Below are positions 154 through 48,800 of a stretch of 64,000 nucleotides of DNA, in pieces. Position numbers and translations under genes: made by a program. The stretch is from positions 1 through 64,000 of the forward strand of contig JABVCE010000011.1 in the NCBI GenBank assembly GCA_014905635.1, in the 5' to 3' direction. Source of the stretch: Scenedesmus sp. PABB004. Its lineage: Eukaryota. The notes below the pieces were generated by a model, which was not told the origin of the DNA, did no database searches, and was given only the letters and a program-made list of their open reading frames with translations. Each line of letters opens with the position of its first letter. The first letter of the stretch is position 1.

Positions 154-3100
154 CGTCCATCCCGGTGGTGGGGTTCAACGCGGTGCTCATGAGCGAGCAC
201 TTTGGCGCCTTCCTCGCCTGCGCCGCCATCCACGCCGCGCTCGCGGTGCGCTGGGTGCGCTCGCTGCTGCCGCCGCGCCAGTTTGAGGCGGCGACGCGCG
301 TCGTGCTCGTCGGCGGCGCGTGCGCCCTCGCCGCGGTCACGCTGCTCGTGCTCGGCTACGTCCTGCGCTCGCCGACGTTTGGCTGGACCGGTGCGCGCCC
401 GCGCCGCCGCCGCCGCGCGCCCGCGCATGCGCCGCCGCCGCGCCCCCCCCCCCCCCCCCCCCCCCTCACGCGCCCCTCCCCTCATCACGCCCCCCCCCCC
501 CCTCGCCCAACACCCCCCCCCCCAGGGCGCAGCCTGACGCTGCTCGACCCCACCTACGCCTCGCGCTTCGTGCCCATCATCGCCAGCGTGAGCGAGCACC
601 AGCCCCCCAGCTGGCCCAGCTACATCACGGACCTCCACTTTGCCGCGCTGCTCGCGCCGGCGGGGCTCATCGCAGCGTTCCGGCGCCTCGACAACGGCGA
701 GCGGCCGCGCCGCGCGGGCGCGCCGTCACCCCCCTCCCTCTCTCCCTCTCTCTCCCTCTCTCTCTCCCCCTCCCTCTCTCCCTCTCTCTCCCTCTCTCCC
801 TCTCTCTCCCTCTCTCTCTCCCCCCTCTCTCTCTCTCCCCTCCCTCTCTGTCCCGCCCTCCCTCTCACCACCCACCCACCCCCCGCCCGCCCACCCCCTC
901 ACGCGCAGGCTCGCTGTTCCTGGTGCTGTACGGTGTGACGGCCGCCTACTTCAGCGGCGTCATGGTCCGCCTCATGCTCGTCCTCGCCCCCGCCGTGTGC
1001 TGCCTCGCGGGCGTGGCGGTCAGCGACGTCCTCTCCACCCTCACGGCGAGCCTCAAGGCCGGCGTGCGCTCCGCGCGCGGCGGCGGCGCCCGCGCCAGCG
1101 CCGGCGGCGCGGCCGACGCGGCCGCGGCCGACGCGGGCGACGACGCCGACGGCGGCGGCGGCGCACCGTCGGCGGGCGGCGGCAAGCGCGGCGGCGGGCG
1201 CGGCAAGCGCGGCGCCAAGGGCGGCGCCGGCGGCGACGAGGCGCGGGCGCTGGGCGGCTTTGGCGACGCGTTCCTTGGCTGGCTGTCGCCCGAGGCGCGG
1301 CCCCTGCCCGCGCCCGTCGCGGCGCTGGGGCTGGGGCTCATGCTGGGGCTGATGGCGCTCTACACCATCCACTGCGTGGGGTGAGCGTGTTTTGTGTGGG
1401 GGGGGGGGGGGCGCTCGGGGGCACGGGAGGCGCGCGCGGCGGGGCGGCGGGGCAGCAGGGGCGGCGGGGGCGGCGGGGCGCGCCCGGCACGCTCACCCTT
1501 GTCCCACTCCCCCCCCCCCCACATCCACCCTCCCACACCACCCACTCCCACCCACCCACACCACCCACTCCCACCCACACCACCCACGCCACCCACTCCC
1601 GCCCGCCCACCCACGCAACAGGTCTCCGCCGACATGTACAGCGCGCCGAGCATCGTGCTGCAGAGCCACAAGCCCGACGGCAGCTTCTACGTCTTTGACG
1701 ACTTCCGCGAGGCCTACGCCTGGCTGCGGCACAACACACACCCCGAGGCAAAGGTCGCGAGCTGGTGCGGCGCGCGGCGCACGGCGCGCGGCGCGCGGCG
1801 CGCGGCGGCACACCGGGGCACCGGGGGGGGGGGGCGTGTGGGAGTCGCGGGGTTGGGGCCGTAACCCGCGCGGTGCCTCGGGAGGGCAGGCGGGCGTGGG
1901 GGCGTGGGACCACCATGTGGCGGTTGACCCGCGCACGTGCGTCCCACGCCCCCACGCCCGCCCTACCTCTCTCGAGCGGCCCGCGGGCGGCCTGGTTCAG
2001 GCCTTGGCGCCCCTGCCTGAGCACCTACCCTAAAACCCCTAAACCACTCCCTCCCCCGCCAACACCCCTGAACCACCGCAGGTGGGACTACGGCTACCAG
2101 ACGACCGCGATGGCCAACCGCACGATCGTGGTCGACAACAACACGTGGAACACGAGCCACATCGCGACCGTGGGCCGCGCGATGGCGAGCCCCGAGGCCA
2201 AGGCCTGGCGCATCTACCGGTCGCTCGACGTGGACTATGTGTTTGTCGTCTTTGGCGGCCTCATCGGGTACAGCAGCGACGACATCAACAAGTTCCTCTG
2301 GATGGTGCGCGCGCCGCGCGCTGCGCTGCGCGGGCTGCGCGCAATGTGTGCTGCGTGTGCTGCCGCGTGTGCTGCGCGTGCTGCGCCGCGCGCCTCGAGC
2401 GGCGCCGGCGCCCCTCGCGCGCGCGCGCGCGCTCCCCCATCCTCCGCGCACACAATGCCACACTCACACACTCACACACTCGCATACACACTCACACACT
2501 CGCATACACACTCACACTCTCACACACTCACACATGTCACACACACGTCACCCCCGCTCCGACGCACACTCACACCCACCAACGCCAGGTGCGCATCGGC
2601 GGCGGCGTGTACCCGGAGATCAAGGAGCCCGACTACATCGGCGAGGGCGGGCAGTACCGCATCGACGCCGGGGGCGCGCCCGCGATGCTCAAGAGCCTCA
2701 TGTACAAGCTCTCCTACCACGAGTGAGGGCTCTTTGGGGGGCGCCGGGGGTGAAGGGTTCAGGGTTCAAGGGCGCAGGGCAAAGGGACGGCGGCGAGAGG
2801 GGCGGCGAGAGGGGCGGCGAGGGCGCCGCGCCGCTGACCCGCCCGCGCGCGCGCCCGCAGCTTTGCGCAGGCGTCGCAGCGCCAGCTCGGCATGGCCGGC
2901 TTTGACCGCGTGCGCCAGACGCAGATCGGCAAGACGGACGTGAGACGCGCCGCGCGCACGCGCACGCACGTGCCGCGCCGCGCCCATTCGCCATCCGCAT
3001 TCGCCCGCACCGCGCGCCCGCGCGCCCCGCCCCCTGCGCCCCGCTGCCCCCCCCCCAAACCTCCCCCCCTTACAACCCCAAACCCTTCCCCTTCAAACCC

Positions 3101-45859: not shown

Positions 45860-48800
45860 ATGGCCGCGGACATGAGCGGCCAGCCCGGGGGCTGCGGCGC
45901 CGGCGCGGCGTTCGCGGAGCCCGCGCGCGGGGACGCGTCGACCGACGGCGCGGTCGAGGCGGACCCGAGCCGCCGCTACCTGCGAGTGCGTGTGGGCCTC
46001 GTGGGGCCCCGGCCGCGGGAGCCGCCCCGGGCCCCAGCTGCGGCGGCGATCGGCCGCGCACGCACGACGGGCGGCTGCGCGCGCGCTGCGCTGTGCCGCA
46101 GTACCCGGTGCTGCTCGGCCGTGGTGCCTGCAAGCGCGTGTACAAAGCGTTCGACCAGGTGGAGGGCATCGAGGTGGCCTGGAACCAGGTGGAGCTCTCG
46201 GCGCACGACCTCGACGAGGAGGCGCGCGAGCGCCTGTTCTCGGGTGCGCGCGCGCGCGCGTCACACGCAGCGCGCGCGCGCCCGGCGGCACCCGGCGCGA
46301 GGCCAGCCGGCTGACCGGCGGCGCGTGACCGCCCGCCGCCGCCGCCCCGCCGCGGCAGAGATCCGCGTGCTGCGCAGCCTGCGGCACCGCTCCATAATCA
46401 GGCGCGGCCGCGCTGCGCGCGGCGGCGGCGGCGGCGGCGGCGGCGGCGGCGGCGGCGGCGGCGGCGGCGGCGGCGGCGGCGCGCGGCGGCGGCGGCGGCG
46501 GCGGCGGCGGCGGCGGCGGCGGCGACGCGGCACCGCCGCTCACGCGCCGCCGCCCGCGTGCCGGCCCCAAAACTCGCCAGCTTTCACGACTGGTGGTACG
46601 ACGCGCCCAGCCGGACCATCAACTTCATCACCGAGTTCTTCACCTCCGGCAGCCTGCGCCAGTGCGCCCCGAGGCGCCGCACGCGCGGGCGGCCACAACT
46701 CCCGCTGCGCACACTTCGCCCGCGCGCTGGCCGCCGAGCGCGCGCGCCGCGCCGCGCGCCGCAGGTACCGCAAGCGCCACCGCCACGTCGGGACGCAGGC
46801 GCTGCAGCGCTGGGCGTGGCAGATTCTTGAGGGCCTGCTCTACCTGCACGCCCACGAGCCGCCCATCGTGCACCGCGACCTCAAGTGCGACAACATCCTC
46901 GTCAACGGCGCGAGCGGGCAGGTCAAGATCGCAGACCTGGGCCTCGCCTCGTGCCAGCGCGGGCTGTCGGTCGTCGGCACGCCGGGTGCGCGGCGCGCAG
47001 CACAGCGCGCAGCACGCGCAGCACGGCGCTGGCCCACCCGGCCCTGGCGCGGCCGCCCGCGTGCGTGCCACGCCGCCCGCCGTGCCGCGCTTGCCCCGCG
47101 CAGAGTTCATGGCGCCGGAGATGTATGACGAGGCCTACAACGAAAAGGTCGACATCTACAGGCGCGCCGCGCAGCGCCGCGCTGCAGCCGCGCTGCAGCG
47201 GCTGCCAGCGCGCAGCGGCTCTGCTGGCGCGGGCGCCGCCCGCGGGCGGTCGGCCGACCGCGCGCCCGGCCGGCCGCGGTGCGGCGCAGCTTTGGCATGT
47301 GCCTGCTCGAGCTCGCGACGCTGGAGTACCCCTACAGCGAGTGCCGCTCCATCCCAGCGATCTTTCGCAAGGTCTCGCAGGTGCAGGCGGGCGCGGCGCG
47401 CGCTGCCCTCGGGGCGCTGGCCGCCGCGGCCTCACCCACGCCGCTCGCCACCCGCCGCCGCCGCCCGCCGCCGCCGCTCGCCGCCGGCAGGGCATCCCGC
47501 CCGCCGCGCTGGCGCAGGTGCCGGAGGGGCCGCTGCGCAGCCTCATCACGACCTGCATCTCGCCCGCGCCCGAGCATCGCCCCGGCGCGCTCGCGCTGCT
47601 GAAGCACGAGTTCTTCGACAGCCTGCGCGGTGCGGGCGGAGGCGCAGCGCGGGCGGAGGCGCGGGCGGCGGCGCCGGCGCGACCACCGCCGCGCCCGCCG
47701 CCGGCGCGGCCGCGCAGACGCGGCCGGCGCCAGCGCGGCGCGAGGCGGCGGCTGCTGCACGCCGCCGGCGTTTGGCAGCTGCGGCAACCTGCAGGCGCTC
47801 TGCAGCGGCGGCAGCCACGCGGGGCGCAGCCTGCGCGCCGCGGTCGCCGGCGCGCACTCCGGGCGCGCGGCGGGCGCGGAGCCGTGCAGCGCCTGCGGGG
47901 ACGCCGCGCCGGCGCCGGGCGATGCCGGCGCCGACGCCCCGCCCGACGGCGAGCGGTTGTTGCCAGGGGCGCCCAAGCCCCGGCCGGCCTGGCAGCGCGC
48001 CGCGCAGCTCGTGCAGCAGCAGGACCCGGACGGCGGCGCCGCCGGCGGCGGCTTTGCGCGCGGCGCGACGGTCTGCCTCGCGGCGCTCGCGGGGCGCTCC
48101 GCGGGCGAAGAGCACACGATGGATGGCGAGGTGCGCCCGTGGCGGCGTCCACCTGGGCGCCTGCGCCTGCTGCGGGCCGCCCCGCGTCGCGGGCGCTGAG
48201 CCGCCACGCCACTCGTGCCGCTCGCTCGTGCGGCCGCGTCTCGTGCGGCTGCGGGTGCGTCGCTCGTGCAGGACTCGGATGACGAGGTGCTGGTGTCTCT
48301 GGAGGAGGTCCTCACGCCGCACCCGCAGGACCTGCTGGACCCCGAGGTCTCCCACCTGACCTCGCAGGCGCGGCCGCGGCGCGGCGCGCGGGGCGGCGGC
48401 GCTGCCGGGGCTGGCCCGCGGCGGCGGACGGGCGTCCGGCCGACGCGTCGGCGCTCCCGTGCCCCTGCCGCGGCGCAGGTGACGCGCACGTGCAGCGGGC
48501 TGATGCTGCGCTCGAGCGCGGGCTGCCCGCTGGCGATGAGCCTCGCAGGCGGCGGCGGCGGCGGCGGCGGCGGCGGCGGCGGCGGCGGCGGCGGCGGCGG
48601 CGGCGCGGCGGCGCTCGGTGACGCCGACGCGGCGGCCAGGGCCGCAGGCGGCGGCGTTGCTGGCCGGGTGAGCGGCACAGCGATGGTGCCGGCCGCGCTG
48701 CTCTCGCGATACGTGAGCAGCGTGGCTCTGCAGCAGGCGGTGGTGGCCGCGGCCACCGCGGCGGCGGCGGGGCCGGTCGCCAGCGGCGCGCGCGCCAGCA

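Follow-up and report, generated by a model that had tools for sequence, protein, structure and literature searches.

Frequent GC-AG introns with a CAG/GCGCG donor in a very GC-rich stretch of green algal DNA

The stretch analyzed here (the window) comprises 64,000 nucleotides (nt), positions 1 to 64,000 of contig JABVCE010000011.1 from Scenedesmus sp. PABB004, and contains many introns that begin with GC and end with AG (GC-AG introns). Its G+C content is 79.7% and even along the whole length; stop codons are so rare that each of the six frames stays open for hundreds of codons. Pfam matches were short pieces of eukaryotic domains (ankyrin, AAA, DnaJ, Kazal, RibA/B, protein kinase, Myb, STT3 and VASt) spread over several frames, and domain matches split in this way point to intron-rich nuclear DNA. 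The nearest proteins belong to chlorophycean green algae, Sphaeropleales among them; the sources include Scenedesmus sp. NREL 46B-D3, Chromochloris, Tetradesmus and Hariotina. An AAA exon is 64% identical to Scenedesmus sp. NREL 46B-D3, which also has a TRP-like protein (P0155; see the TRP-like gene below). Judged by sequence, the window belongs to the nuclear genome of a green alga resembling Scenedesmus.

A first-pass annotation had listed 20 GC donors among about 113 introns (about 18%). The sequences given were found at all 20 places, and the strand was correct at 19; the donor at 5319 lies on the minus strand, not on the plus strand. The word CAGGCGCG is common in the window (58 copies, 33 on the plus and 25 on the minus strand), and independent evidence was therefore needed for each site. 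Inside gene spans, 32 copies lie in the sense orientation, of which 16 are donors. Five copies of CAG/GCGCG (the slash marks a splice junction) are acceptors, the following exon starting with GCGCG. The core CAG/GC is thus common to donor and acceptor, and the two are easily confused in hand-built or automatic models.

A site counted as confirmed when spliced alignments to orthologous proteins, or a solved structure in which the residue numbering ran on without a break, fixed both exon sides. Alignments were made with a purpose-written protein-to-DNA spliced aligner in three modes, allowing GT and GC donors, GT donors only, or any dinucleotide. Some of the orthologous proteins are transcript-derived (MMETSP and EukProt entries), and the homology-validated donors were found without any motif model. 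In addition, an exon/intron model was self-trained from codon periodicity (G+C at the third and second codon positions of exons about 0.96 and 0.55, respectively), with no donor motif assumed beyond GT or GC. This gene model recovered 20 of 22 validated donors and 18 of the 20 listed sites, with log-odds of 3644+1157 when GC donors were allowed and 3356+1006 when they were not.

Twelve of the 20 sites were confirmed, six are backed by frame logic and the gene model only, one is not forced and one does not fit as drawn (Table 1). At each of the six, retaining the intron would shift the reading frame or introduce a stop codon; among them, a same-phase GT alternative lies downstream only at 8487 (45 nt) and 24563 (GTGCGC, 39 nt). 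The curated introns comprise 18 with GC and 90 with GT donors, so that the GC share is 17% (18/108) over the whole window and 21% (18 GC and 69 GT; 18/87) up to 49.5 kb. The frequency first proposed therefore held, while two of the sites behind it, 33033 and 38361, did not. Frequent GC-donor introns are, on this sequence evidence, real and about as common as claimed. They had also been said to cluster by gene. They account for 7/19 introns in the TRP-like gene, 3/5 in the AAA gene and 3/10 in the WNK gene, a distribution that was not significant by permutation (p = 0.12).

Table 1. Candidate GC-AG introns of the window. Flank identity is given for the 5' and 3' exon sides; "frame + model" denotes frame logic plus gene model only.
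Gene	Coordinates	Strand	Donor	Outcome	Support and remarks
STT3	697..908	+	ACG/GCGAGC	confirmed	residue numbering in a solved structure; 212 nt, frame change
Cdc27/POLD3-like	5196..5319	-	AAG/GCACGG	frame + model	gene model, frame change
Esterase-like	8487..8608	+	CAG/GCGCGC	frame + model	gene model, frame change (122 nt)
VASt-domain	16229..16372	+	CAG/GCGCGC	frame + model	gene model; in-frame stop on read-through
TRP-like	18957..19101	+	CAG/GCGCGG	confirmed	4/4 orthologues; flank identity 6.8/6.8 of 10
TRP-like	19207..19409	+	CAG/GCGCGG	confirmed	4/4 orthologues; flank identity 9.0/7.8
TRP-like	20225..20341	+	CAG/GCGCGC	confirmed	3/4 orthologues
TRP-like	20399..20790	+	CAG/GCGCGC	confirmed	3/4 orthologues; no same-phase GT alternative
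TRP-like	21378..21480	+	CAG/GCGCGG	confirmed	1/4 orthologues; flank identity 8/9
TRP-like	24344..24500	+	CAG/GCGCGG	frame + model	gene model, frame change (157 nt)
TRP-like	24563..24689	+	CAG/GCGCGC	frame + model	gene model, frame change (127 nt)
AAA ATPase	31282..31443	-	CAG/GCGCGC	confirmed	6/6 homologues; no GT from -30 to +60
AAA ATPase	31648..31770	-	CAG/GCGCGC	confirmed	6/6 homologues
AAA ATPase, splits Walker A	32214..32308	-	CAG/GCGCGC	confirmed	6/6 homologues; flank identity 10/8-9; no GT nearby
AAA ATPase, upstream of conserved part	32887..33033	-	CCG/GCGAGT	not forced	
DUF4813-like	38232..38361	-		misfit	not supported as drawn
DUF4813-like	38502..38626	-	CAG/GCGCGC	frame + model	gene model, frame change (125 nt)
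WNK, after 43-nt micro-exon	46402..46580	+	CAG/GCGCGG	confirmed	3/9 homologues at flank threshold
WNK, at VDIY/SFG	47162..47289	+	CAG/GCGCGC	confirmed	9/9 homologues; flank identity 7.2/9.1
WNK, C-terminal part	48368..48478	+	CAG/GCGCGG	confirmed	two Tetradesmus orthologues, unconstrained run

In the AAA ATPase gene, the three confirmed GC junctions lie inside the conserved stretches EGPP/GTGKT, HEAS/RRLLGVLLREIDGF and ALLS/RFDLSIHFGLP, and for the introns of this gene 5 to 10 of 10 flanking residues per side are identical in the six homologues. All six also placed the GT intron 32139-31923. Allowing GT donors only lowered the alignment scores by 220-290 units (for example, from 1108 to 817), and unconstrained runs returned identical intervals offset by 1-2 nt. 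The candidate intron at 33033 is 147 nt long with an open in-frame read-through, and the closest orthologue begins downstream of it.

The WNK kinase gene gave similar results. Its score fell from 1380 to 1174 in the GT-only run, and five GT introns (46986, 46662, 46244, 45986 and 47381) are backed by nine homologues. The intron at 46402 is visible in the alignment to one homologue (P0018), with no GT from -30 to +60, and is missing from the gene model. The micro-exon that it follows (46359-46401, plus strand) codes for a conserved stretch and has a GT intron before it and a GC intron after it; the gene model replaced it by a poly-Ala/Gly exon. For 48368, flank identity with the two orthologues is 7/5, the 3' side being weak. 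Taking the AAA and WNK genes together, runs with no dinucleotide rule found the same intervals shifted by 1-3 nt, and GC-AG was the sole canonical-like reading within these shifts. Restricting the donors to GT cost each homologue about 160 to 290 score units.

For the TRP-like ankyrin channel gene, a search with an ankyrin exon was swamped by multi-ankyrin proteins, and only four matches were used as orthologues (P0155, P0208, P0224 and P0251). Five GT introns are supported by these orthologues beside the five GC introns. At 24344 the upstream exon is conserved right to the donor, while the 3' side is not settled by the four orthologues; they also leave 24563 unsettled. A first metagenome scan gave no match and a second gave nine loci, of which only one (L001, 60% GC) was close enough for comparison. 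At the position and phase of 21378, its intron begins CAG/GTGCGT. The introns at 20225 and 20399 are missing from L001 at those positions.

The intron of the STT3 gene was fixed by residue numbering. Residues 3-54 of exon 528-695 match human STT3A 331-382, and residues 2-48 of exon 911-1378 match 387-433. Once the terminal residues and the codon divided by the intron are included, the numbering runs through 697-908 with no residue missing or extra. Further along this gene, the true introns 1376-1621 and 1765-2081 (plus strand) have the GT donors TGC/GTGGGG and CTG/GTGCGG, the second of them restoring the conserved SWWDYGYQ. In this region (1376-2081) the gene model had wrongly called micro-exons and two GC donors. 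The intron at 5319 is 124 nt long with one stop on read-through; PDB searches with the POLD3-like exons gave no useful match, so that this site is without homologue support.

All 18 supported introns start with GC and 17 of them end with CAG. The GT donors of the window have the consensus G/GTGCG(C/G), with G at +3 in 88/90, C at +4 in 59/90 and G at +5 in 88/90. CAG/GCGCG is therefore the local GT site with C at +2. Exonic CAG precedes 16/18 GC donors and 15/90 GT donors (Fisher 6e-9), and the difference persists among homology-validated sites (11/12 vs 3/11, p = 0.003). These counts agree with the earlier proposal that recognition relies on the exonic CAG. The accompanying statement that the GC sites are without the usual compensation at +3 to +6 was misleading: at +3 to +5 their local consensus is complete, with GCG in 16/18 compared with 55/90 GT donors. 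GT donors of this species follow GTGCG instead of GTAAGT, so that the absence of AAGT characterizes the species rather than the GC class.

Predicted base pairs to the 5' arm of standard U1 small nuclear RNA (snRNA) are equal for the two classes, 5.89 for GC and 5.94 for GT donors, while exonic pairs number 2.83 and 1.69, respectively. With this predicted equality, the variant U1 or U6 snRNA that had been suggested would not be needed. In the context CAG/GYGCG, position +2 is C in 16 and T in 6 cases; outside it, C occurs in 2/86. The 16:6 ratio comes fairly close to the value for intron bodies, where C/(C+T) is 0.88. Acceptors and intron length showed no difference between GC and GT introns, and the branch-site motif CTRAY was found in 4/18 and 6/90, respectively (p = 0.06). 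U12-type (minor) introns have the donor /RTATCCTT with a matching branch site; the donors here read GCGCG(C/G) and do not agree with that motif.

The common GC-AG introns of the window are probably ordinary introns of the major (U2-type) spliceosome and a result of the extreme GC richness of the genome. T-to-C pressure, either mutation bias or GC-biased gene conversion, would turn the T at +2 into C, which would survive only where the other contacts are optimal, namely exonic CAG and GCG at +3 to +5. The U1 pair lost at +2 would be offset by three exonic pairs. Position +2 would then be near neutral in the optimal context, and T would be kept by selection in weaker ones. That C is frequent in the optimal context and nearly absent elsewhere fits a threshold model of U1 pairs. 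Intron positions, both consensus sequences and the equality of the predicted pair counts are direct observations.

Several points weigh against this explanation. The direction of the change, the role of U1 pairing and the actual splicing of the RNA are read from DNA, and only one orthologous intron pair (21378 and its L001 counterpart) bears on the direction. The U1 register used for the pair counts is one that we take from general knowledge. Rfam gave no match anywhere in the window, and hence no U1, U6 or U5 candidate there. G+C is no higher in introns with GC donors than in those with GT donors (0.891 vs 0.875, p = 0.47), so that no local GC effect is visible. Six of the 18 counted GC donors are without homologue support. 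The GT donor set came mostly from our own error-prone gene model, which missed a micro-exon, and four GC calls of that model were proven false and removed (1478 and 1784 in STT3, 46481 and 47396 in WNK).

High shares of GC-AG introns have been described in other algae. In the haptophyte Emiliania huxleyi, GC-AG junctions made up 56% of 241 hand-mapped junctions, and nine GC junctions were confirmed by reverse-transcription PCR (RT-PCR) (Feldmesser et al. 2014, PMC4028052). The authors named the 65% GC genome as the cause and noted that ab initio models mispredict junctions (PMC4028052). The window resembles E. huxleyi in being from a GC-rich alga with many GC donors and canonical AG acceptors (PMC4028052). 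It differs in being from a chlorophyte, with 80% GC and about 17-21% GC donors as against 65% GC and 56-60%. The text consulted on E. huxleyi contained no treatment of how GC donors depend on their flanks. Among pelagophytes, the GC-AG share is 14-17% in Aureococcus, 14% in Pelagomonas and 0.32% in the low-GC Aureoumbra (bioRxiv 10.1101/2024.10.30.620910). The share, the high genome GC (63-70% there) and the explanation by GC content are similar to those found here (bioRxiv 10.1101/2024.10.30.620910), but these stramenopiles have 0.2-0.9 introns per gene compared with up to about 20 in the window.

GC-AG introns average 1.2% in plants, where the GC content of splice sites follows that of the genome (PMC6310983, PMC7072748), and U2-type GC-AG introns make up about 1% in plants and animals (PMC6310983, PMC7072748, PMC3167603). 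As far as those sources describe them, the ordinary U2-type GC-AG introns share with the present ones a GC donor, an AG acceptor and stricter other donor positions that offset the mismatch at +2. Those of the window are 15 to 20 times more frequent, and their compensation consists of CAG plus GCG at +3 to +5 rather than AAGT. Like other GC-rich algal DNA, this one window combines high G+C with a GC-AG share above 10% (18/108), and it extends to a chlorophyte an effect already known to follow from extreme GC content. The literature search, which left most subscription papers outside its reach, found no high GC-AG share for chlorophytes or other green algae. Annotated major non-canonical introns number 19/67,746 in Monoraphidium neglectum (65% GC) and 19/33,105 in Auxenochlorella, as listed in the supplement tables of PMC6310983. 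The near-absence of GC-AG introns from annotations of GC-rich chlorophytes more likely reflects gene finders than biology.

An adapted spliceosome, with a changed U1 base opposite +2, altered U6 or U5, or some other factor in this lineage that reads C at +2, would make GC as good as GT. The high GC share (17-21%) and the excess of C over T in the optimal context speak for such a change, but GC donors would then not need stricter flanks. With a U1 able to read C at +2, CAG would no longer be needed, and the strict flanks (16/18 vs 15/90) thus argue against it, as does the near-absence of C in non-optimal contexts. The pair count with standard U1 already explains both donor classes equally, and changed machinery appears unlikely. 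If the machinery had nevertheless changed, the GC donors would form a regular class maintained by selection instead of a product of tolerated drift, and the alga would stand midway toward the GC-majority state of Emiliania. That most of the GC donors are artefacts of modelling, the true donors being nearby GT sites or the introns not existing, is quite unlikely, although the abundance of CAGGCGCG in 80% GC DNA, the two of 20 sites that fail or are not forced, and the same-phase GT alternatives at 8487 and 24563 would favor it. The gene model does overcall GC donors (48 with a minimum intron of 40 nt, 37 with 70 nt); beside the four false calls, 16 further ones, mostly non-consensus, were left out of the count. 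Against such artefacts, twelve sites are fixed on both sides by alignment with no usable GT, and GT-only runs were worse for each homologue.

Systematic T-to-C errors in the assembly consensus, the real sites being GT, are very improbable. Such errors would be blind to the exon context, so that CAG would be expected at about 17% of the sites and was observed at 89%; the exons align to orthologues without frameshifts, and high GC-AG shares were verified by RT-PCR in another GC-rich alga (PMC4028052). Introners, a mobile intron family carrying its own GC donor, would account for the strict donor motif and for the absence of two of the introns (20225 and 20399) from L001. Nevertheless, only 14/7626 intron pairs share any sequence after low-complexity filtering; the matches all measure 25-56 nt and show no preference for GC donors. 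Beyond simple GC repeats, the introns are without common sequence, and those with GC donors have the same length and composition as those with GT donors. This origin is extremely improbable.

With ordinary U2-type introns under GC pressure as the preferred explanation, the window would amount to a natural titration of the 5' splice site, in which C at +2 is nearly free with CAG and GCG and is otherwise almost never seen, in line with a simple threshold in the number of U1 pairs. If very GC-rich chlorophytes in general use 15-20% GC donors, GT-only gene finders would break many multi-intron genes. Our own gene model failed at several places in the same way.

On the minus strand, 38232-38361 is a stretch of GCG repeats between two conserved exons, with no GT and open in frame. 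The phase-2 donor at 38361 together with the only available AG (38232) gives AGG TGC TAA, a stop codon, and this candidate was rejected. It may code for poly-Ala, or it may be an intron whose GC donor is undefined.

The longest GC-donor intron, 20399-20790 in the TRP-like gene, is 392 nt long with 65% GC and has a (CA)n microsatellite at its end; such a run is unusual for DNA of 80% GC. Intron positions in this gene (18537-21558, plus strand) are strongly different from those in L001:260-2313. The two have only two positions in common, those following residues 256 and 405/406 in our model; four introns of the window are absent from L001, and three or four of L001 are absent from the window. 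An exon of about 1.4 kb with uncertain borders (22088-23473, plus strand) codes for a low-complexity linker rich in Ala, Gly, Ser and Pro, without counterpart in the orthologues. In the comparison of P0155 with 21559-25686, the protein matches the window near-perfectly up to ARMGFA and beyond it only as low-complexity noise, which suggests that the deposited P0155 gene model is wrong after this point, possibly at a non-GT donor.

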